From a virus (lineage: Duplodnaviria > Heunggongvirae > Uroviricota > Caudoviricetes), in the IMG/VR virus record IMGVR_UViG_2700989545_000014: a stretch of DNA of 11,068 nucleotides, one strand, 5' to 3'. The notes beneath the pieces are model-generated. The model saw only the letters and a program-made list of their open reading frames with translations, did no database searches and was not told the DNA's origin. The position numbers were made by a program, and so were the translations under genes. This document shows, piece after piece, positions 532 through 11,068 of the stretch (position 1 is its first letter; each line of letters begins with the position of its first letter).

Positions 532-813
532 ATGCGATGTGGTTTATTAATGGCAATCTGCCTTTGTTTAGTATCTTTTAGCGGATATGCAGCAACAGGA
601 AAGTCTGATGCTCAGATCAAAAAAGAAATAATTAAAGAATCCATTGAATCTTATCCAGGCAATTGTGCGTGTCCTTATAATCATGCAAGGAATGGTAGTA
701 GATGTGGTGGACGCAGTGCATATAGCCGTAATGGAGGGTATGACGTGGTATGTTATGAGGGTGATGTTACCGATGAAATGATCCGGCAATGGAAGCAGGA
801 GAATGCTGAGTAA
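532..813 (+). CDS. Small secreted Cys-rich protein of unknown function (93 aa with predicted signal peptide)
   Basis: The ORF track frame is 418..813. The signal-peptide-like segment MRCGLLMAICLCLVSFSGYA-ATGKSD (basic n-region, hydrophobic core, A-x-A site) begins at the ATG at 532, so 532 is the preferred start. The mature part has 5 Cys (GNCACPYNH...CGG...VVCYEG). The region is markedly AT-rich compared with the phage genes. The Shine-Dalgarno is weak (GAGTG). Confidence 0.5.
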   Translation: MRCGLLMAICLCLVSFSGYAATGKSDAQIKKEIIKESIESYPGNCACPYNHARNGSRCGGRSAYSRNGGYDVVCYEGDVTDEMIRQWKQENAE

Positions 814-1001: not shown

Positions 1002-1142
1002 TTACTGCTTACACTGTAAGAACGCCGCAAACTCCGCTCCCCAGAAGCTCATCCGTATTTCACACAGCGAACCGTGTAGCATCCAGATGATGAGGATTAC
1101 CGTCACGCAGAACGTGATGGCCGTAAGCGATTTTTGCGACAT
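1002..1142 (-). CDS. hok: Hok/Gef-family type I toxin (46 aa membrane peptide)
   Basis: Hand translation of the minus strand gives MSQKSLTAITFCVTVILIIWMLHGSLCEIRMSFWGAEFAAFLQCKQ*. It has an N-terminal hydrophobic helix plus the conserved Hok core SLCEIR and the AAF(L) C-terminal motif seen in Hok, Gef, RelF, PndA and SrnB. AAGGAG lies 8 nt upstream of the ATG. It is absent from the ORF track because it is under 60 aa. Confidence 0.7.
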   Translation of the reverse strand: MSQKSLTAITFCVTVILIIWMLHGSLCEIRMSFWGAEFAAFLQCKQ

Positions 1143-1333: not shown

Positions 1334-1594
1334 TTAATTCTGAGGTAAAGGCAAACTCATCTGATTGTTTCCCCTGTGTGAAGCTGGCAGCTCATGCCAC
1401 GGGATACCTTCTGAAGAGTGAACGCCGGAGGTGTGTTTTGATGTGAATTTATGGAAAGCTTCCAGTGTTGAGAAGCATACGCCGCATTCCAGGTTGTTAC
1501 ACTGGTAATACTTTTGCCGCACGGTGTTTGAATCATTTTCAGGACGACTGGTGCGGATACGGGCAGATGCGCCACAAAGCGGACAACGGAACAT
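1334..1594 (-). CDS. ogr: Ogr/Delta-family zinc-finger late-gene transcriptional activator (86 aa ORF, C-terminus atypical)
   Basis: The N-terminus MFRCPLCGASARIRTSR...YYQCNNLEC has the CxxC...CxxxxC zinc-finger layout and matches P2 Ogr (MFHCPLC...). AAGGGAGG lies 5 nt upstream of the ATG at 1594. The ORF is longer than P2 Ogr (72 aa) and its last ~28 codons lie in DNA homologous to the hok-like repeat. Confidence 0.8.
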   Translation of the reverse strand: MFRCPLCGASARIRTSRPENDSNTVRQKYYQCNNLECGVCFSTLEAFHKFTSKHTSGVHSSEGIPWHELPASHRGNNQMSLPLPQN

Positions 1595-1636
1595 AGCGAC
1601 CTCCCTTAACGTGGTGCTGCTGCTATTCTAAGTTGC

Positions 1637-2746
1637 TCACTCTGTTTCTGCTATCCATTCCGAGATTTTTGCCTCAAGCTCAAGCTGCGTGGTAAAGCCG
1701 CTGTTATCGATGGTGTGCTCGGCTTTTGCAATAATCCAGTCCTGATTATCAATCTCGCTTTTAAATCCTGTTACCGTGCCATGCATTTCGGGGTAGAGTT
1801 CTGCACGACCACATGCCAGCGTGATGGAGAATGATGCGGCTCCGCGTTGTAGCTGCTGCCACTTTGCCGCCGCTGCGCGTCTTGCTGCCTGCTCGTTCTG
1901 ATAAGTCTTGCGTAACACAAACACATTGCCTTCCGCGCCTTCCATATAATCACCTTCACGGCTGCTGCTTTTCTCCTTTTTGGGTTTTGGCGGTTTACGG
2001 CGTTTCACGCTGACTTTTTTCTTTTTCCCGTAATTAAGATCAAGCCAGTAGGCGCGTACCCCCGTATACGCCTCGCGGTCAGCAATACGGAACTGATGGC
2101 GATCGCCGCTGCTGCGTGTAATGGCGAACGAGGGCAACGGCTGGCCCTGTGCGTTCACGCCACCACCTGGCATGATGAATAACAGATTGCCGCTTTTTAC
2201 CGTGGTGATTGCGCCCAGCATTTCCGCCATGCGCGTAAGGAAGGACATATCGCTTTCTTCGGTCTGGTCGGCGTGGTCGATTTCGATATCCATCAGCATT
2301 TCGCTGATTTGCGGTTTCAGACCGTACCGATGAGCGATGGCAGATACCACGCGCTCAACGGTCACATCATGCCAGGACACCTCACGTTTAACGTTAAATT
2401 CATCCCGAAAATCTGCGCTTCTGGCTGAAACAGTCAGCCTGTCCGGCGGTCCTTCGTGAGCGATTTCATCAACAATGTAAGTGCCTTTTTCTGTCAGCGG
2501 TTCTCCTTTCCAGCCAATGAGAACCGTCAGGCGCGCGCCCCGTGGCGGTAGCTGCAACTGACCATCCGCATCATCCAGCGTGATGGTGAGCTGGTCCGCC
2601 TCAAATCCCCGGTTGTCGGTCAGTGACAGGCTCATCAGGCGCTCTGCCACGCCTGACAGCGTTTTACCCTCCGCGAGAATATCAAAATCCGGCATTTTCA
2701 CGGGGTCTGTGCCCTGACTGAGCAATTGCATGGTGGTATCGGTCAT
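1637..2746 (-). CDS. D: P2 gpD-family tail protein (phage late control gene D protein)
   Basis: The 369-aa product contains SLSLTDNRGFEADQL...LTVLIGWKGEPL, typical of the gpD family. The start is placed at the ATG at 2746 (MTDTTMQLL), which is preceded by GGGAGGG; the track ORF extends to 2878 without a ribosome-binding site. Confidence 0.85.
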   Translation of the reverse strand: MTDTTMQLLSQGTDPVKMPDFDILAEGKTLSGVAERLMSLSLTDNRGFEADQLTITLDDADGQLQLPPRGARLTVLIGWKGEPLTEKGTYIVDEIAHEGPPDRLTVSARSADFRDEFNVKREVSWHDVTVERVVSAIAHRYGLKPQISEMLMDIEIDHADQTEESDMSFLTRMAEMLGAITTVKSGNLLFIMPGGGVNAQGQPLPSFAITRSSGDRHQFRIADREAYTGVRAYWLDLNYGKKKKVSVKRRKPPKPKKEKSSSREGDYMEGAEGNVFVLRKTYQNEQAARRAAAAKWQQLQRGAASFSITLACGRAELYPEMHGTVTGFKSEIDNQDWIIAKAEHTIDNSGFTTQLELEAKISEWIAETE

Positions 2747-2903
2747 CTGTTCCCTCCCTGTGCGGCATGGTCGCATGTGCGTGCGGAGGGGGTTACTGCT
2801 TTTTGTTGTCGCCGTGGCGGGAGAACGGCGCAGGGGTGAGATTACGCACGTGGTGGGTGATGATTGTTGCCGAATCATTTAACGGATACAAGGGGCTGAA
2901 GCT
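2747..2903. promoter_or_regulatory. Divergent intergenic region between D-ogr and the FI operon (expected late promoters)
   Basis: This 157-bp non-coding spacer lies between two divergent starts. By analogy with P2 the FI operon should have an Ogr-dependent promoter here, but no clean TGT-N12-ACA dyad was found by eye. Confidence 0.3.
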
Positions 2904-4088
2904 ATGAGTGAAACTCGTTTTCATGGTGCCCGTGTTACGGAAAATACCGACCTGGTAACAGCGATTAACGATGTTGATTCCAGCGTTATCGGTATCGTGG
3001 CAACGGCGGATGATGCGGACGCGAAGCTGTTCCCGCTGAATAAGCCCACACTGCTGACCCGCGTCAATGACGTGCTGGGAAAATGCGGGACAACGGGGAC
3101 GCTTTATCGTGCGCTTAAGGCCATCGCAGACCAGGTGAGCACAAAGGTGATCGTCGTTCGCGTGGCTGAACACAAAGAAGAAGACGGAAAGACGCAGGAT
3201 CAACTGGTTATCGGTGGTTCTGAGGATGACGGCAGCTATACGGGGATGTATGCGCTGCTTGTTGCAGAGCAGGATGAAAGCATCGGATACCGTCCGCGTA
3301 TTCTGGCCGCGCCGGAGCTGGACACGGAGGCTGTAACAAAATCCCTGTGCGTGATTGCAGGTAAACTGCGCGCGTTTGTGTATGCCTCATGTCACGGCTG
3401 TAACACGATGGCTGAGGCGATTACCTACCGCCAGAAATTCAACGAACGTGAGGTGATGCTCTTATGGCCGGACTTCATCGCCTACAACCCGAAAAGTGGC
3501 AAAAACGAAACGTTCCCCGCGCCTGCTTATGCGTGCGGCCTTCGTGCGTACATTGACCATGAGCAGGGCTGGCACAAATCGCTGTCCAACGTTCCGGTTA
3601 AAAATGTGCTGGGAATGTCCAGGCATGTGTTCTGGTCGTTGCAGGCCGAAGACAGCGATGCCAATAGCCTCAACAACAAAGAAATCACGACCATTATTCG
3701 TCGCAACGGGTTCCGCTTCTGGGGCAACCGCACACCGGAAACGAACGCCTACATCTTTGAGGTGTATACCCGAACCGCACAGGTGCTGGCTGATTCAATT
3801 GCGGAAGCGCAGTTTGAAACCATCGACAGTCCACTGACACCTGCGAATGTGAAGGATGTTATCAGCGCCATCAGGGCAAAACTGGATTCGCTGGTTACTG
3901 CCGGGAAACTGATTGGTGCGGAGTGCTGGTATGACGTGGTGGATAACGGCACCACGAATTTACGTCAGGGACGTGTGCGTATTCGCTACAAATATACGCC
4001 TGTTCCCCCGCTGGAAGACATGGAGCTTTACCAGACGTTTACTGATGAATTCTTTGGTCCCGCATTTGCGGTGCTGGGAGGTGCCTGA
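2904..4088 (+). CDS. FI: Contractile tail sheath protein (P2 gpFI family)
   Basis: The 394-aa product aligns by eye with P2 FI along its length (FPLNKP, KLRAF, AYRQ-F, WPDF, EQGWHK-LSNV, IRRNGFRFWGNRT, YTRTAQV, YTPVPPLE). AAGGGG lies 7 nt upstream of the ATG. Confidence 0.9.
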   Translation: MSETRFHGARVTENTDLVTAINDVDSSVIGIVATADDADAKLFPLNKPTLLTRVNDVLGKCGTTGTLYRALKAIADQVSTKVIVVRVAEHKEEDGKTQDQLVIGGSEDDGSYTGMYALLVAEQDESIGYRPRILAAPELDTEAVTKSLCVIAGKLRAFVYASCHGCNTMAEAITYRQKFNEREVMLLWPDFIAYNPKSGKNETFPAPAYACGLRAYIDHEQGWHKSLSNVPVKNVLGMSRHVFWSLQAEDSDANSLNNKEITTIIRRNGFRFWGNRTPETNAYIFEVYTRTAQVLADSIAEAQFETIDSPLTPANVKDVISAIRAKLDSLVTAGKLIGAECWYDVVDNGTTNLRQGRVRIRYKYTPVPPLEDMELYQTFTDEFFGPAFAVLGGA

Positions 4089-4600
4089 TGGCTGTACCAA
4101 AACATCTTCGCTTTTTTACGTTGTTTGTGGATGGTGAAAACGAAGTGGGTAAAGTGACATCCGTCACGCCGCCCAAACTGACGCGCAAAACCGACAGCTA
4201 TCGTGGTGGTGGCATGATGGGGGCGGTAAGTATTGATCTCGGTCTGGACGACTCCGCGCTTGATGCGAGTTTTGTCATGGGGGGAGCTGTTCGTGCGCTG
4301 TTCCTTAAATATGGCGGCACGATTGACGGCACGCTGCTGCGTTTTGCGGGTGAATACTACACCGATGCAGAAAGCGATCTGTATGAAATCGAGATGCGCG
4401 GGCGTGTGACGGAAATTGATATGGGGGAAGCCAAACAGGGCGAAGCCACATCACACACTTACGCTGTCAAAAACACCTACTACAAGCTGAGCGTTAACGA
4501 TCGCCCGCTGTGGGAAATCGACCTGTTGAACCACATCTACCGGAAGGACGGCAAGGACATTGTGCCTGACCGTATCCGTTCCGCGCTTGGGCTTGGCTGA
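4088..4600 (+). CDS. FII: Tail tube protein (P2 gpFII family)
   Basis: The 170-aa product carries VTPPKLTRKTDSYRGGGM, the LGLDD motif and MRGR-EID-GE-KQGE, matching P2 FII. Its start overlaps the FI stop (ATGA), indicating translational coupling. Confidence 0.9.
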   Translation: MAVPKHLRFFTLFVDGENEVGKVTSVTPPKLTRKTDSYRGGGMMGAVSIDLGLDDSALDASFVMGGAVRALFLKYGGTIDGTLLRFAGEYYTDAESDLYEIEMRGRVTEIDMGEAKQGEATSHTYAVKNTYYKLSVNDRPLWEIDLLNHIYRKDGKDIVPDRIRSALGLG

Positions 4601-4612
4601 TAAGTAATATGC

Positions 4613-4633
4613 AGGCGGCGCAGTGCGTCGCCT
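4613..4633 (+). other. Intergenic GC-rich hairpin between tube and chaperone genes (possible attenuator or RNA-processing site)
   Basis: An 8-bp stem aggcggcg / cgtcgcct with a 5-nt loop, followed by only two T residues, so it is not a strong terminator. Confidence 0.25.
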
Positions 4634-4655
4634 TTGACTGAAAAGGAGACAACTG

Positions 4656-5030
4656 ATGAAAGACATCGATACTGAAACCCGGAATAACACCGTGGCGGAT
4701 GATGTGACGGCAGGTGAGGATATGGCTGTCGAACGTGGCGTAAAACTGACCCGACCAATTGAGCGTGGTGGCGAAAAAATCACGTATGTGGAGATCACCG
4801 GGGCTATTGAGCAGGCTGGATCCCTGCGTGGTCTGTCGCTGTCTGATGTGCTGAATCTGAAAGCGGATACCATGTTTACGCTGTTGCCTCGCGTGACCTC
4901 GCCACGACTGGATGAAGTGATGATTAAAAAAATGTCGTCACGCGATTTTATTCAGTTGTGCGCAGTGGCTGTAAATTTTATGAGCGAGCCAGACTCTGGC
5001 GCGAAGAGCGTGCAGGAGACGGCAGCGTAA
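4656..5030 (+). CDS. E: Tail assembly chaperone gpE
   Basis: The 124-aa ORF has AAGGAG 7 nt upstream and sits between the tube and tape-measure genes, where P2 and lambda (G/GT) carry the chaperone pair. A slippery heptamer lies near its 3' end. Confidence 0.8.
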   Translation: MKDIDTETRNNTVADDVTAGEDMAVERGVKLTRPIERGGEKITYVEITGAIEQAGSLRGLSLSDVLNLKADTMFTLLPRVTSPRLDEVMIKKMSSRDFIQLCAVAVNFMSEPDSGAKSVQETAA

Positions 5031-5194
5031 TCACTCTGGTGTGCTTTGAGCACATCGAAGATCTGGTGGCGGATATTGCCGCCATTTTTAACTGGTCGCC
5101 CGCCGAAATCTTCATGATGACGCCCGGCGAAGTGGTTAGCTGGCGTGAGCGGGCGGCACTTCGCAGCGGGAATGCAGATAATGAAGACTCTTGA
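4656..5194 (+). CDS. E+E': gpE+E' chaperone fusion produced by programmed -1 ribosomal frameshift
   Basis: The -1 frame (track ORF 4958..5194) overlaps the end of E. A canonical X_XXY_YYZ heptamer A_AAT_TTT lies at 4973-4979 in the E zero frame, and slipping there continues as ...CKFYERA... in the E' frame. The arrangement is conserved in contractile-tail phages. Confidence 0.6.
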
Positions 5195-7988
5195 TATCCG
5201 GGTCGCTTTCAGCGCCGTTGACAGGCTGACCCGGCCTGCCGAAAACGCCCGCCGCCTGATGGGGCAGTTTGGTGACTCCATCCAGCGAACGCAGGGGGCG
5301 ATCAAAAATCTCGAGCGTCAGGCGCGTTCATTTGAGCGCGCCCGTGACGCTGTCAGTAAAGCGGATGCTGGCATCGTGAAAGCACGACGCCAGCTTAACG
5401 CCCTTAATCAGTTACAACGCACGGGTACAGTGCTCAGCGAAAAACAACAAAAGCTGATGCAGCAGTTAAGCACCCGGCTTGAACGCCTGAATGAATCGCG
5501 CACACGGGAAATTCAGAAAATGCGGGAGCTTGGCGGAGAGCTGAAACGCCACGGCATTTCCCTGACAGGCAGCGATAACACCATCCAGCAGGCCATCAGA
5601 CGCACCGAACAGTACAACAACCAGCTTGAACGCGAACGGCAGGCGCTTGCGCGTGTAACGCGGGCGCGTGAGCGGTATTCGCGCGCGCAGGAAACCGCGG
5701 GAAAACTGAAAACAGGTGGTGCGCTGGCAATTGGTGCTGCAGCGGCTGGCGGCTATGCCGCCGGGCGTTTTTTGCAGCCTGCGATCGGGTTCGGCAAAGA
5801 GATGTCCCGCGTTCAGGCACTGACGCGAATCGACAAAAACAGCCCGCAGTTTAAGGCGCTGCGTGAGCAGGCGTTAAAACTTGGTTCTGAAACACAGTTT
5901 ACTGCGAGTGATGCCGCCAGTGGGCAGAGCTTTCTGGCAATGGCTGGTTTTACTCCGCAGGCCATTCAGGCCGCATTGCCCGGTGTTCTTAATATGGCGC
6001 TGGCAGGTGGCGTCGAACTCGGCGAGACGGCTGATATAGGCTCCAATATCCTCACACAGTTCAACCTGACAGCCGATCAAATGGACCGGGTTGGCGATAC
6101 GCTGACAGCAGCATTCACCCGGACCAATACTGATTTACGCGCGCTGGGCGAAACCATGAAGTATACCGGTCCGGTTGCCGCAAAACTTGGTATCAGTCTT
6201 GAAGAAGCGGCGGCCATGGCCGGGATGCTTGCCAATAATGGTCTTCGCGGAAGCGATGCTGGTACGGCCATGCGCGCAAGTCTGTCCCGCCTTGCATCAC
6301 CGCCAAAAGCTGCGGCTGATGCACTGAAAGAGCTGGGGGTGTCAGTTGCTGACGCCAGAGGCAAAATGCGCCCGATGGAGGATGTGCTGCTTGATCTCTA
6401 TAAGGCGACACAAAAATACGGACAGGTGGACCAGGTCTCCTTCTTCAAGGACATCGCCGGAGAAGAGGCGTTCGTTGGTTTGCAGACGCTTGTTGCGGCG
6501 GCTGGTTCAGGAGAACTGCAAAAACTGACCAGAGAATTGCAGGGGGCAAGGGGAGAGGCCGATCGCGTTGCAAAAGTAATGGCCGATAATCTTGATGGAG
6601 ACCTGAAAAATCTCGACAGCGCATGGGAAGGTCTTCGTATTCGCATCAGTGATCTGGTTGACGGTCCGCTGCGTTCTGTCACGCAGTGGCTCACGCGGGT
6701 GCTTGAAAAAATCACCTCGCTGGCGCAGGCCCATCCGGTACTGACGCGCCAGCTACTGATAGCAGGCGGTGCGTTGCTGGCAATGACTGCAACGATTGGC
6801 TCGTTGTCGCTGGTTATTGGGGTGCTTTACGGGAAGCTGGCCACCTTGCGTCTTGGTTTCGACATTCTTACCCGGTCAATGAATGTCATCAGGGTGTTGC
6901 CTGCGCTGTGGGGAATGGTGACGGGTTCTGTTTCTTTGCTGGGTGGCGCTATCGGGGCGCTGTTCAGTCCGGTTGGTCTTATCGTGGCTGCGCTTGCCGG
7001 AGCTGCCGTTCTTATCTGGAAATACTGGGATCCCATCAGGGCATTTTTTGCCGGGGTGTTCAGCGGGATTATGGAAAGGCTGACCCCGTTGCGTGAAACC
7101 TTTGAACGGTTTGGCCCTGTTTTTGACGCAATCGGAAGCGGGATCAGCCTGGTGTTTAACTGGTTTAAATCGCTGTTGTCACCGATGGAGTCCAGCAAGG
7201 AAACGCTGGATAAATGCACCAGTGCTGGCGAGGTATTCGGTAACGTTCTTGGCGGTGCGTTACAACTTGTTCTGACACCTGCAAAAATGCTACTGGATAC
7301 GCTGGCGTGGATACTTGAAAAACTTGGTGTCCTTCCGGATGAAGCGGAAAGGGCGCGCAAGAAAATCGAAGACGCACAGCGTGCGGCCATTCTTCAGGAC
7401 AAGGTTGCCTTGCTTCAGGGGGACCTGGCGAAAATCAATCCGCCGAAGCCTGTGGAAAATGGCAATGGCACCGGAGGTGATAAACCCAAAGACAACAAAC
7501 CGCTCACAGACAGCAATACCGGGACGCTACGCAGACTCAGCAAAATTGCTGATAACACAGGTAAGCTGGTTGATGAGACGAAAAAACGCATTGGCCCCGG
7601 CGATATTGTCTTTAAGAACCTGCCCCGCGCACTTGCTGTTCGTGGGGAGTGGCAGGAGCGGAAGATTGCGCAGGTCAGTAAGCCTGCCCCCGCAATTAAT
7701 ATCACACCCGTGGTCTCGGCTCCGCTGCCTCCGGCGCTGGTCCCTGTTGTTGCGGCCAGCTCCCGCCCGGTGGCGGAGGCCATACGATCGCCAGTGGCAT
7801 CAGTTCCTGCAACTTCCCGTAACCGGGAGCCTGCTGTCTCCGGATTTTGCGGTGAAATTCATGTTCATCTGCATAACGTTGTTACGCAGAATCCCCGCGA
7901 ACTGGCGAAACTGGTCGGTGAAATGGTCAGGGCAGAGATGGAACGGCGCGCCCGTGCCGGACGTGGCAGTTTTTACGATAAAGATTGA
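5181..7988 (+). CDS. T: Tail tape measure protein (P2 gpT family), about 935 aa
   Basis: A long ORF directly after the chaperone pair. It has a coiled-coil-like, Q/R/E-rich N-terminal third, internal hydrophobic segments and a Pro/Ala-rich C-terminal region. The start is placed at the ATG at 5181 (GGGA 9 nt upstream); the track frame opens at GTG 5145 inside E'. Confidence 0.85.
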   Translation: MKTLDIRVAFSAVDRLTRPAENARRLMGQFGDSIQRTQGAIKNLERQARSFERARDAVSKADAGIVKARRQLNALNQLQRTGTVLSEKQQKLMQQLSTRLERLNESRTREIQKMRELGGELKRHGISLTGSDNTIQQAIRRTEQYNNQLERERQALARVTRARERYSRAQETAGKLKTGGALAIGAAAAGGYAAGRFLQPAIGFGKEMSRVQALTRIDKNSPQFKALREQALKLGSETQFTASDAASGQSFLAMAGFTPQAIQAALPGVLNMALAGGVELGETADIGSNILTQFNLTADQMDRVGDTLTAAFTRTNTDLRALGETMKYTGPVAAKLGISLEEAAAMAGMLANNGLRGSDAGTAMRASLSRLASPPKAAADALKELGVSVADARGKMRPMEDVLLDLYKATQKYGQVDQVSFFKDIAGEEAFVGLQTLVAAAGSGELQKLTRELQGARGEADRVAKVMADNLDGDLKNLDSAWEGLRIRISDLVDGPLRSVTQWLTRVLEKITSLAQAHPVLTRQLLIAGGALLAMTATIGSLSLVIGVLYGKLATLRLGFDILTRSMNVIRVLPALWGMVTGSVSLLGGAIGALFSPVGLIVAALAGAAVLIWKYWDPIRAFFAGVFSGIMERLTPLRETFERFGPVFDAIGSGISLVFNWFKSLLSPMESSKETLDKCTSAGEVFGNVLGGALQLVLTPAKMLLDTLAWILEKLGVLPDEAERARKKIEDAQRAAILQDKVALLQGDLAKINPPKPVENGNGTGGDKPKDNKPLTDSNTGTLRRLSKIADNTGKLVDETKKRIGPGDIVFKNLPRALAVRGEWQERKIAQVSKPAPAINITPVVSAPLPPALVPVVAASSRPVAEAIRSPVASVPATSRNREPAVSGFCGEIHVHLHNVVTQNPRELAKLVGEMVRAEMERRARAGRGSFYDKD

Positions 7989-7994
7989 GGAGTC

Positions 7995-8489
7995 ATGGTC
8001 ATGATGATGATCTACGGCATGTTTGTTTTTGAGCTGCGCACATTGCCGCATCAGCAGTTACAGCAAAACAAAAGCTGGCGGCATGTGAAAAATGAACGCG
8101 TTAACCGTTCAGCAAGCTGGCAGTATATCGGTGCAGGTGATGATCGCATTGTGCTTTCCGGCGTGCTTTATCCTGAAATTACAGGTGGCGAAGTGTCGCT
8201 TTCATTGCTGACCACGCAGGCATATACAGGACGGCCCTGGCCTCTGATTGATGGTGTCGGGCAGATTTACGGCATGTATGTACTGACTGAAACGAATACG
8301 ACCCGTTCCGAGTTTGATCGCTACGGTAAGGCGAAAAAGATAGAATTTTCACTGACTCTTGAACGCTGTGATGAGGATTTGCGGGAGCGCCTGCAATCCT
8401 CATCGTTCAGCGATATGTTGTCCGGCTTCAAAGATAAGGTGACATCATCCCTTAATAGCGCGGCCAGCTCAGTTAAGGGGCTGCTCTGA
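7995..8489 (+). CDS. U: Tail protein gpU (P2 U family)
   Basis: The N-terminus ...MMMIYGMFVFELRTLPHQQLQ... and the LSG-L-PE-TGG, WPL-DG-G and SEF motifs match P2 gpU (MMMVLGLFVF...). Shine-Dalgarno spacing favours the ATG at 8001 over 7995. Confidence 0.85.
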   Translation: MVMMMIYGMFVFELRTLPHQQLQQNKSWRHVKNERVNRSASWQYIGAGDDRIVLSGVLYPEITGGEVSLSLLTTQAYTGRPWPLIDGVGQIYGMYVLTETNTTRSEFDRYGKAKKIEFSLTLERCDEDLRERLQSSSFSDMLSGFKDKVTSSLNSAASSVKGLL

Positions 8490-8499
8490 TTTAACGTAT

Positions 8500-8532
8500 G
8501 TCGCCAATTTCCTGATGAAGGTGACTGGCGAC
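8500..8532 (+). terminator. Weak hairpin downstream of U (possible end of the tail operon)
   Basis: gtcgcca (8500-8506) pairs with tggcgac (8526-8532) across a large loop and is followed by moderately T-rich sequence. Structure only. Confidence 0.2.
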
Positions 8533-8565
8533 TTGCTGTTGTATGTCCTTCTCAGAAAATTGTTT

Positions 8566-8594
8566 TTGAATAATAAACAACAGGATTTTATAAT
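8566..8594 (+). promoter_or_regulatory. Near-consensus sigma70 promoter for the cargo gene
   Basis: TTGAAT (8566-8571), a 17-bp spacer, then TATAAT (8589-8594). The predicted transcription start near 8601 is followed by AAGGAG at 8634-8639. Confidence 0.5.
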
Positions 8595-8645
8595 CTCTTA
8601 ACCTTATAACATGTGTGGTCTGAAATAATAATTAAGGAGATTATC

Positions 8646-9218
8646 GTGCTGTCTTACCTAATGGCAATTCACTTTGTTTTATTTGGGAACTCTACTAATT
8701 TAAAAAACTTCTGGAAACATGAAGTAATTCGGCGGAAACGTATGGATATCTGGAGGCTTTTAAGAGAGAAAAAGCAGCGTAACAGGAATTTCCTTTTCTG
8801 GTGGCGGTTGGCTAACGAAATGTATATTAATGGTAATAAATTACATAAGAAAGCAGCCAAGAAGTTAAACAGTAAAATAATTAACAAATTTGGTTGCGAA
8901 ATTGGATTGGGCGCAAATATTGGAAAAGGGTTAACAATTCCCCATCATGCTGGAATTGTTGTTCATTTTGCTGTTGATGCTGGTGAAAATCTGGTGTTAC
9001 GACAGAATACGACCATTGGACAGATAGATGGTGACATACCTGGTTCAAGAGTAAAAATTGGTAGCAACGTTGATATCGGAGCTAATTGTTGCATCATTGG
9101 ATTATCCCGTAAAATTGGGGATAATGTAAAAATAGGTGCAATGTCTTTTATAAATAAAGATATACCATCGAACTGCACATATATAACTAAAAAGAGCGGT
9201 GCTGTATTGTATAAATAG
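8646..9218 (+). CDS. Hexapeptide-repeat (left-handed beta-helix) O-acetyltransferase of the CysE/WcaB/NodL type, prophage cargo (moron) gene
   Basis: The C-terminal two-thirds shows imperfect hexapeptide repeats (GCEIGLGANIGKGLTIPHHAGIVV...VKIGSNVDIGANCCIIG...IGDNVKIGAMSFI) resembling serine and polysaccharide O-acetyltransferases. The start is placed at GTG 8646, 6 nt after AAGGAG; the track frame opens at 8613. The gene is far more AT-rich than the flanking phage genes. Confidence 0.7.
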   Translation: MLSYLMAIHFVLFGNSTNLKNFWKHEVIRRKRMDIWRLLREKKQRNRNFLFWWRLANEMYINGNKLHKKAAKKLNSKIINKFGCEIGLGANIGKGLTIPHHAGIVVHFAVDAGENLVLRQNTTIGQIDGDIPGSRVKIGSNVDIGANCCIIGLSRKIGDNVKIGAMSFINKDIPSNCTYITKKSGAVLYK

Positions 9219-9226
9219 AGTACATA

Positions 9227-9263
9227 AAGCCATCGATATTTCTATCGATGGCTTTTTCTTTTT
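9227..9263. terminator. Strong rho-independent terminator after the cargo gene
   Basis: A 12-bp stem aagccatcgata / tatcgatggctt with loop tttc is followed by tttttcttttt on the plus strand. The tfa stop codon lies at the edge of this element. Confidence 0.7.
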
Positions 9264-9840
9264 ATTGTGGGGCGACTGGCCACTCAATATCTGCTGCTAC
9301 TGTTGTATCAACACGATGCAACAATACTCGATATGTCTTCCATGCAGCCAGTAACGATGTCTCTTCCTCCGTCGCAATATCTAAATCTATAGCATCCTGA
9401 AGTGGTGCAATATGCTCACTGGCTACCTGCATCAGGCTGTTTTTTGTTTCTTCCGCCTCCCTTATCCGAAATAGTTTTTCTGCTTCTGCATCTTTCACCC
9501 AGGATGTGCCGTTCCACTTCTGATACTCTCCATACGGCGACAACCAGGTAACATTTTCCGGTAACGGACCGAGTTCAGAAATAAATAACGAGTCCCCTGA
9601 TGCCACGTCATAAACCGTTTTACCCCGATGGTCTTCAACGAGATGCCACGATGCCTCATCACTGTTGAAAACGGCCACGAAGCCAGCCGGAATATCTGGC
9701 GGGGCAATATCGGTACTGTTTGCAGGCAGACCTGTATGAGGTGAAATGTATGCATCACCTTCACCAATAAACTCATTGGTTCCGGTCAGTAGATTATAAA
9801 TTTTTATGGTCCGTGATTGTTCACTCATTCTGAATGTCAT
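9262..9840 (-). CDS. tfa: Tail fibre assembly protein (lambda Tfa / P2 gpG family)
   Basis: The 192-aa product ([18 protein letters not shown]...[20 protein letters not shown]...) closely resembles, from memory, the TfaR/TfaQ-type chaperones of E. coli lambdoid prophages. Its ATG overlaps the stop of the upstream fibre segment (TAATG). Confidence 0.9.
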
Positions 9841-10226
9841 TATGCAAGCCTCACAATATAGTTAAATGCGATGTTTTTTACGGTGTTTTCTGCGTTCCCC
9901 GTAGCATTAACGGTGATGGTGTGTCCGTGGGGACCAATAATGACAGAATGGGCATGAGCACCAATGCCGATAGTGTGGTTATGGGCACCGATATATACAT
10001 TGTGAGCATGCTCTCCTGCGCTCGACGTGGTACCAGTACCTAACGCAGCGTTATAACCGGCTGATACACCATTCCCCGCGCCAGTGTGACCAACAGGTAT
10101 ATTGTGTGAATGAGCTCCTGCGCTATTTGTGGTTTTTGTGCCGTAATCAAATGAACTGGTCGTTTTAGTACCGTAATCAAACGACGGCCCGGCCACTGGC
10201 GGGTTTGCCCTTAATCGTCCAGCCAC
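9840..10226 (-). CDS. stf: Side tail fibre, distal receptor-binding segment with HxH repeats (out of frame with the upstream fibre ORF)
   Basis: The 128-aa frame contains GAHSH...[37 protein letters not shown]...[11 protein letters not shown], an HxH-rich fibre tip, and a tandem FDYGTKTT repeat. It is translationally coupled to tfa. The frame opens only about 4 codons upstream of the GTG at 10226, so it is not an independent gene extending upstream. Confidence 0.6.
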
Positions 10227-11068
10227 GCATATCAGGGATCACGCCTGACGGATAAGCGGCTGCAAGTTTCGGGTAGGCAGATTTGTCAAAAGTCTGCCCC
10301 TGCATCAGGGCATAACCAGACGGAACGGTATCCGATGGCCACGGGATTGGTGCGCCAGGCGGATAAAACTGCTCTGATGGCGTATAGAGTGAATAAACTG
10401 TACCGTCCGTTAACCCTTCCGGCTTATTAGCAGAATATGCTGGTGACGTATGAATCGTCACGCTGGCATTACTGGTATAATCCCATTGAATATTTACACC
10501 AGTCGCATAATTTCCGATTGCAACGTAAATATCGTAAGTATCACCAGATGTATTGACCCAGGCAAAATTTGTAAACCCTGTCGATGTGCGCTGCCATAAA
10601 GCACCAGTAATCCCCTTCGGATTACCATTACCTGCACGCAAAACAAGTTCAGATATACCTGCCTGTTGAGGTGAACCGACGTTAAATCCAGCGCCACCAA
10701 TCAACGTAATTGAAACAACAGAACTCGCCTGTGGCATGGTTACCGTTGCTAATTTGAACCAACCAGCACCACCGCTGAATGACATTGTTGTTGAGTTAAG
10801 CGTACCAATATCTTTCGGCGTCAGTGTTATATCCGCCGAAAGCGCCTTACCATTCACCTTACGGGCAGAAGGTACCCGACCATTCGCATTGTCATTAGCT
10901 GCTTTCACTGCTTTCGGTGTTGCAGCAAGCGTTTCAGATGTGCTGTTGGTTGCACTACTGAGCTGGACAATTCCTTTTTGTGCCGTCGTGGCGTCCTGTG
11001 CGGTATATTTCCCGTTAGCAAGGTCATAGGCTGCCTTTACCGCCTTTGGTGTTGCCGCCAGCGTTTCT
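10177..11068 (-). CDS. stf: Side tail fibre, shaft portion (5'-partial; continues beyond the window edge)
   Basis: The frame is open from the window edge to the TGA at 10177. It carries the repeated fibre motif [14 protein letters not shown] twice (hand translation of 10900..11068) and a Gly/Thr/Ser/Asn-rich shaft, as shared by lambda Stf, P2 H and Mu/P1 S. The track start at 10908 is an internal GTG. Confidence 0.7.

Follow-up and report, generated by a model that had tools for sequence, protein, structure and literature searches.

Mosaic tail-fibre gene of a P2-like Escherichia coli prophage, very probably inactivated by an 86-base deletion

The stretch of DNA analyzed here (IMG/VR record IMGVR_UViG_2700989545_000014; 11,068 nucleotides [nt], referred to below as the window) is, by its gene layout, the tail cluster of a P2-like Escherichia coli prophage, and at its far end it carries a tail-fibre gene on the minus strand, followed by tfa, the gene for a tail fibre assembly protein. 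We conclude that this fibre gene, which in its intact form is a mosaic, has very probably been turned into a pseudogene, because an 86-base deletion shifts its reading frame and translation stops before the receptor-binding needle.

Interrupted reading frame of the fibre gene

The window holds the last two thirds of the fibre gene, with codons 1 to 230 lying beyond base 11068. Both a list of open reading frames (ORFs) and a three-frame translation divide this part into two overlapping ORFs in different frames of the minus strand, one at 10177-10908 (continuing to 11067) and the other at 9840-10226. Read from 11067, the upstream frame closes with an 18-residue stretch and then a TGA stop codon; the predicted fibre product is 525 amino acids (aa) long, not 667. 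The reference for the intact state was provided by two annotated related prophages, L001 and L002, the latter being a locus of E. coli OkiPb01713 with an intact 667-aa fibre. The in-frame upstream part is identical to nt 690 to 1571 of the L002 gene and includes two Phage_fiber_2 units and the Collar domain, both recognized by Pfam, while the out-of-frame 3' remnant carries two FDYGTKTT units, five HxH motifs, the tip cassette and a conserved C terminus of 15 residues.

The fibre genes of L001 and L002 are intact and 2,004 nt long. Aligned with them, the window sequence falls into two blocks (nt 690 to 1571 and nt 1658 to 2004), which match L002 without a mismatch and between which 86 nt are missing. 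Over a wider range (10,186 nt), window and L002 are 99.98% identical, with two substitutions and, as the only indel, this deletion. The missing stretch, nt 1572 to 1657 of the intact gene, encodes 28 residues that comprise the first HxH motif (SHTH) and the first GTKTT unit. The breakpoints (GGGCCGT/ATTG... and ...CATCGT/CGTTTG) have only CGT in common and are out of register with both the 30-nt and the 132-nt repeats of the gene, which led us to reject an origin of the deletion by repeat-mediated slippage. By shifting the frame at 10186/10187, the deletion would leave the product without needle and tip, without any HxH motif and without the C-terminal strand of the collar, and particles produced from this prophage should lack functional fibres; we infer that fibre function is lost.

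The initial annotation, made from the letters of the window alone, had placed all these motifs in a single fibre protein. The motifs themselves are indeed present in the DNA at about the positions it gave, and they are more than chance: the 128-aa remnant ORF contains five HxH motifs, compared with 0.85 expected by shuffling, and just 4 of 10,000 shuffles reached five. These motifs lie at 10115-10104 (AHSH), 10013-10002 (EHAH), 9986-9975 (AHNH), 9959-9948 (AHAH) and 9932-9921 (PHGH). The FDYGTKTT duplication is likewise real, slightly displaced from the interval (10141-10190) to which it had been assigned; intact relatives have three related GTKTT units (a 26-residue sequence), the first of which was removed by the deletion. 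Upstream, a 13-residue sequence is encoded twice on the minus strand, at 11067-11029 and 10935-10897, the serine codon of the former copy being cut by the window edge, and the corresponding DNA copies, at 10880-10935 and 11012-11067, are spaced by 132 nt and share 77% identity. The 14-residue repeats to which these belong are units of the Pfam family PF03406 (Phage_fiber_2); two of them fall within the window (E = 2.6e-29), and an intact relative has three (E = 5e-63). Such two-copy repeats were found by a repeat search; Tandem Repeats Finder did not report them. What did not hold is the single protein: the repeats lie in the upstream frame and the FDYGTKTT units and HxH motifs past the stop, in another frame, and the window fibre gene lacks one uninterrupted reading frame, the HxH tip being out of frame with the shaft. 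A reading based on motifs only can miss a frameshift that separates the motifs from their gene.

Alternatives to an inactivating deletion

The junction 24-mer was absent from species-representative genomes, IMG/VR and JGI metagenomes, and in 5,426 complete E. coli genomes a 171-nt query across the junction yielded only two-piece matches, spanning 257 nt, among those with 100% coverage. Because the junction is unique and relatives often carry other inactivating lesions, the simplest reading is that a decaying prophage has recently acquired a private, inactivating deletion, and we infer that the deletion is real and not an assembly error. If, instead, the 86-base gap arose as an artefact of sequencing or assembly, the fibre of the real genome would be intact at 667 aa, like that of OkiPb01713, and the single-protein reading would be correct. 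The uniqueness of the junction among the 5,426 genomes and three large collections would fit this as well, as would flanks that are 100% identical to an intact gene; however, breakpoints that share just three bases, outside any repeat register, leave collapse of a repeat by an assembler without a natural cause, and real inactivating lesions are common in related prophages at this site. We therefore regard an artefact as unlikely.

Several points nevertheless weigh against a private inactivating deletion and the model built on it. A junction found in no other sequence fits a very recent private mutation and an error alike. The 5' third of the gene, outside the window, was assumed to be like that of L002. 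Iron binding, trimer formation and dependence on Tfa, finally, rest on homology.

It is also conceivable, though highly improbable, that the deletion allele is not dead, either because a low-level +1 shift rejoins the two frames or because the remnant serves only as a recombination donor for a co-resident lambdoid stf gene. In the former case, the needle would be about 29 aa shorter, with five iron sites instead of six and two GTKTT units instead of three, which would amount to a natural experiment on the HxH layers needed by a gp37-type needle; as a donor, the remnant would offer 84 to 94% DNA identity to lambdoid stf genes. We likewise give very little credence to expression across the lesion, whether by a +1 shift at GUU-UGA (10179-10174), resulting in a fibre with an internal deletion of about 29 aa and five HxH sites, or by translation of the remnant (128 codons) from a GTG at 10226. 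The stop does follow immediately after the junction, and a shift there would restore the needle frame, but no Shine-Dalgarno-like stimulator is visible upstream of either the GUU-UGA site or the GTG, and the arrangement, occurring in no other sequence, shows no conservation. Compared with the CUU-UGA of the prfB frameshift site, moreover, re-pairing of tRNA-Val on UUU is poor, which counts against the shift, and a remnant translated alone would have no baseplate-attachment domain and only half a collar.

We thus retain the inactivating deletion as our explanation. Because the receptor-binding end is probably not expressed, this prophage should be counted neither as able to make infectious particles nor as supplying a functional receptor-binding protein. 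Beyond annotation, the importance of the finding is small.

Modular composition of the intact fibre

Module boundaries were mapped on the intact L002 allele (667 aa) rather than on the broken gene of the window, through the alignments to P2 H, lambda Stf and Mu S that had been proposed as a check on the initial annotation. The N-terminal 287 residues are 60% identical to residues 1 to 286 of P2 H and consist of a PF12571 domain (aa 1 to 150, E = 1e-61) and three PF03406 units. Similarity to P2 H ends right after the last 14-residue unit (around 10897 in the window), and none was detected beyond aa 287. At the DNA level, similarity to P2 H is confined to the repeat region, nt 451 to 867, with exact words of 26 to 32 nt per unit, and this region is the only part with DNA similarity to P2 H, lambda stf (orf-401) and Mu S alike. 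Both the shared repeats and the end of P2 H similarity at the last repeat appear consistent with the old idea of repeats as recombination points.

Downstream lies a middle module (aa ~300 to 463) with similarity to none of P2 H, lambda Stf and Mu S. At the aa level, fibres of JL22, CMS-2020a, phi458, Cyrano and Yersinia phages share 82 to 95% identity with it, and those of ST64B, SJ46 and T-even phages 46 to 62%; the module is common to P1-like, ST64B and T-even fibres. The position near 10797 where DNA similarity to JL22 ends was considered as a crossover site of the Mu gix type and rejected, since similarity to Mu S fades just before the region of the Mu G-segment boundary, where DNA similarity was not detected.

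The third module, resembling lambda Stf and T4 gp37, starts at the Collar domain. DNA similarity to lambda and to the lambdoid phage mEp460 begins at gene nt ~1388 to 1395, corresponding to about 10365 in the window, and residues 465 to 667 share 65% aa identity with lambda Stf orf-314, with a DNA identity of 84 to 89% to lambda and of up to 94.5% to mEp460. Within the conserved flanks of the needle, a variable tip cassette lacked blastn similarity to the stf DNA of lambda and mEp460; in protein alignments this cassette is shorter than the inserts of T4, lambda and mEp460, and it is the expected site of receptor specificity.

In the intact homologue, then, the fibre is a mosaic, as had been proposed, with P2 H-like sequence limited to aa 1 to 287, lambda Stf-like sequence in aa 465 to 667 and a Tfa that is 89% identical to that of lambda. 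The proposal that the repeats mark the junctions fits the end of P2 H similarity and fails at the second junction, which lies at the collar domain and not at a repeat; a mosaic of P2 and lambda modules describes both ends of the protein and misses the middle module, which is neither P2- nor lambda-like. A uniformly P2 H-like fibre without module junctions, for which the 60% identity of the N-terminal 287 aa and the position of the gene could be cited, was not seen and has next to no probability, given a C terminus matching lambda Stf and T4 gp37, a tfa of the lambda type and the complete lack of HxH motifs in P2 H.

Receptor-binding end and assembly protein

The intact gene would thus encode a baseplate-attachment domain of the P2 H type, three 44-aa repeats, the middle module and a receptor-binding end of the lambda Stf/T4 gp37 type, the last being composed of a collar domain and a trimeric needle, with receptor specificity presumably carried by the short variable tip. 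The C-terminal 217 residues of the intact allele (aa 451 to 667) match the solved structure of the T4 gp37 tip, 2XGF, with an E value of 2e-77. On the question of a metal site, a solved homologue this close is a better guide than a single-chain model of an intertwined trimer. For T4 gp37, a trimer with octahedral iron sites is established (PMC6957217), and seven irons along the needle axis, held by HxH histidines of three chains, are described as critical for folding in PMC6957217 and in the account given by PMC11705849, which cites Bartual 2010. Six HxH motifs of the intact allele (HTH536, HSH578, HAH612, HNH621, HAH630 and HGH639) could be aligned with those of T4 (seven motifs) and lambda (eight); mEp460 has seven and P2 H has none. 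The array is in register with the iron-binding motifs of gp37, at six positions for the intact gene and five for the window remnant.

Six iron sites are therefore predicted by homology to gp37, each HxH from three chains holding one ion, and the suggestion in the initial annotation that the motifs might bind metal proved well founded in this sense. In the window, by contrast with the intact gene, the HxH array is untranslated as part of the fibre. Since collar domain D10 of gp37 is made of residues 811 to 881 and 1010 to 1026 (PMC6957217), the 525-aa product would be without not only the needle and tip, but also the C-terminal strand that completes this domain in T4.

The tfa gene, in contrast, is intact. 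At 9840 its start codon and the stop of the fibre gene overlap, and its 192-aa product is of the lambda type, with matches to PF02413 (Caudo_TAP, E = 1e-40) and to PHROG 105 ("tail fiber assembly," E = 9e-96). The 89% aa identity to lambda Tfa extends over the full length (191 aa), while resemblance to P2 G and Mu U (42%) is restricted to residues 127 to 192, the last 66. According to PMC9608196, where North 2019 is cited, Tfa proteins are modular, with a variable N-terminal domain that binds the cognate fibre and a conserved C-terminal domain that trimerizes; a lambda-like N-terminal part followed by generic C-terminal 66 residues seems to agree with that scheme. Folding of an intact receptor-binding end would depend on this Tfa, encoded just downstream.

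Prophage context and neighbouring genes

The features of the window are collected in Table 1.

Table 1. Features of the fibre gene and of the surrounding tail cluster (window coordinates)
Feature	Position	Strand	Basis or remark
Tail-fibre gene	9840 to beyond 11068	-	Position of P2 gpH
In-frame upstream fibre part, codons ~231-525	10177-11068	-	ORF list, translation; 5' end cut by window edge
Phage_fiber_2 units (period 44 aa/132 nt)	10867-11068	-	Repeat search, Pfam; unit 3 complete, unit 2 partial
Middle module, aa ~300-463	10369-10860	-	Without counterpart in P2 H, lambda Stf or Mu S
Collar domain PF07484, start of lambda Stf/T4 gp37-like module	10213-10356	-	Pfam, E = 1e-12
Junction of 86-base deletion	10186/10187	.	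Pairwise alignment with L001 and L002; 3-nt CGT microhomology
Premature stop (TGA) from frameshift	10174-10176	-	Translation ...KPASGRAVV*
Out-of-frame 3' remnant, codons 553-667 of intact gene	9840-10186	-	100% identical to L002 gene nt 1658-2004
Two FDYGTKTT units (period 30 nt)	10128-10181	-	At 10181-10158 and 10151-10128; DNA copies 85% identical
Variable tip cassette, gene nt 1681-1866	9978-10163	-	Gap between blastn high-scoring segment pairs; conserved needle flanks
Five HxH motifs	9921-10115	-	Translation; sixth (SHTH) lost with deletion
tfa	9262-9840	-	ORF layout and annotated relatives
Hexapeptide acetyltransferase, low-GC	8613-9218	+	ORF layout and annotated relatives
U	7995-8489	+	ORF layout and annotated relatives
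Tape measure	5145-7988	+	ORF layout and annotated relatives
E	4656-5030	+	ORF layout and annotated relatives
FII tube	4088-4600	+	ORF layout and annotated relatives
FI sheath	2904-4088	+	ORF layout and annotated relatives
gpD	to 2878	-	ORF layout and annotated relatives
ogr	1334-1594	-	ORF layout and annotated relatives

On the basis of ORF layout and the annotated relatives L001 and L002, the window belongs to a P2-like prophage adjoining a tRNA-Leu/Cys/Gly cluster. Among complete E. coli genomes, 268 cover at least 80% of the window, and about 1,200 have more than 80% of the segment comprising the fibre region (9200-11068). Baseplate J and I, fibre and assembly protein follow each other in L001 and L002; the window itself has the fibre followed by tfa. 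The FI-FII-E-T-U block (region 1334-8489) lies on the strand opposite to D/ogr and fibre/tfa, whereas in P2 all are codirectional. Because L001 and L002 are annotated with the same layout and the 268 complete genomes cover at least 80% of the window, this looks like an inversion of the F operon minus D that became fixed in the prophage lineage.

Convergent with tfa, at the position of P2 Z/fun, lies the acetyltransferase gene, separated from the U gene by a spacer (8490-8612) and sharing with tfa a terminator with a 13-bp stem (hairpin 9226-9255). Its GC content is 0.35, compared with 0.54 for the tail operon. The product resembles the CysE, EpsC and WcaB acetyltransferases, scoring below every curated NCBIfam cut-off, and falls into PHROG 2154 (function unknown). 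Many E. coli genomes, like phage JL22, carry the gene together with tfa, and it may be a lysogenic-conversion gene for acetylation of polysaccharide. Upstream of the tape measure gene, E and a "GpE family" ORF (5039-5194, plus strand) are separate genes in the relatives, while their P2 counterparts are made via a programmed -1 frameshift. At the prophage end, two genes transferred by coordinates from L002 lie in the interval from the tRNA cluster to ogr: a small hypothetical gene (~532-813, plus strand) and a Hok/Gef-family toxin gene (~1002-1142, minus strand).

The prophage lineage at this tRNA-Leu site is decaying. In L001, IS3 and IS600 insertions are present in the tape measure gene and near a shortened D, the capsid gene is frameshifted and gpI has an internal stop; in L002, a virion-morphogenesis gene contains an internal stop. 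L002 additionally carries, at 18186-20066 between the lysis and tail-completion genes, a large insertion relative to P2 that encodes a 626-aa DUF6645 protein, and in L001 the DUF6645 gene is frameshifted.

Comparison with known systems

With P2 gpH/gpG, the locus has in common its position after J and I, the PF12571 N terminus and the PF03406 repeats. Everything past the repeats is different, P2 H being devoid of the collar and the HxH needle, and the window gene is frameshifted. The collar and HxH needle are instead shared with lambda Stf/Tfa, and PF03406 repeats occur in orf-401 of lambda as well; unlike lambda Stf, the fibre has an attachment domain of the P2 type, an unrelated and shorter tip cassette and, in its intact form, six HxH motifs compared with eight. 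In laboratory lambda (PaPa), the side-fibre gene stf of Ur-lambda is frameshifted and split into two ORFs, orf-401 and orf-314 (PMC3945230). PaPa and the window thus both have a split stf or fibre gene, with the lesion here being an 86-bp deletion, not the PaPa frameshift mutation.

The T4 gp37 tip (2XGF) is matched at six of its seven iron-binding HxH positions and in the same 15 C-terminal residues. One ascending HxH of gp37 is replaced here by an extra FDYGTKTT unit, however, the tip insert is shorter, the chaperone is of the lambda Tfa type and not gp38 plus gp57A as in T4, and the rest of the fibre is unrelated.

Among invertible systems, the fibre has the SETLAATxKAVK repeat region in common with Mu S/U and P1 S/U (56% identity to Mu S aa 111 to 170). 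In contrast to Mu G, P1 C and e14 P, with their invertases Gin, Cin and Pin, the window contains no invertase ORF, no second inverted cassette and no long inverted repeats, only chance inverted repeats of 12 to 14 nt. The gene after tfa is that for the acetyltransferase. Lacking an invertase and an inverted second cassette, the locus is not a switch of the Mu/P1 type. In mEp460, the lambdoid phage whose stf is closest at the 3' end, tfa is directly followed by a serine recombinase gene (L007, 4913-5503), as in invertible systems; the window contains nothing of this kind.

The whole architecture recurs in Chuche (PP925824), an isolated Escherichia phage with a P2-like annotated gene order, whose fibre combines a P2 H N terminus, three repeats, a collar and six HxH motifs with a Tfa of the lambda type and is 59% identical over aa 2 to 667. 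It differs in its middle module, in the intact state of the fibre gene and in a macro domain-containing gene between fibre and tfa. This last gene (L008, 13815-14684, in Chuche, where the copy gives only weak ADP-ribose-binding/macro-domain matches, E = 5e-13, below the cut-off) is also found in the O157:H7 and Salmonella SEN4/5 relatives, and is absent from the window. STYP1, P24A7b and SEN1 are further Peduoviridae with fibres of this type.

That P2, Mu, P1, lambda and T-even phages have traded fibre segments horizontally is a classic result (Montag 1989; Haggard-Ljungquist 1992; Sandmeier 1992, 1994; all as cited in PMC3945230). While a lambdoid fibre-tfa module does sit in a P2-type tail cluster, as the initial annotation had noted, it is no special acquisition of this locus: the mosaic architecture is textbook knowledge and standard in the P2-like sublineage represented by Chuche. 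The module map offers a clean illustration of such mosaicism, without a new principle, and could guide the design of chimeric fibres; the only particular feature of the locus is the private deletion, very probably an inactivating one, in a decaying prophage lineage.

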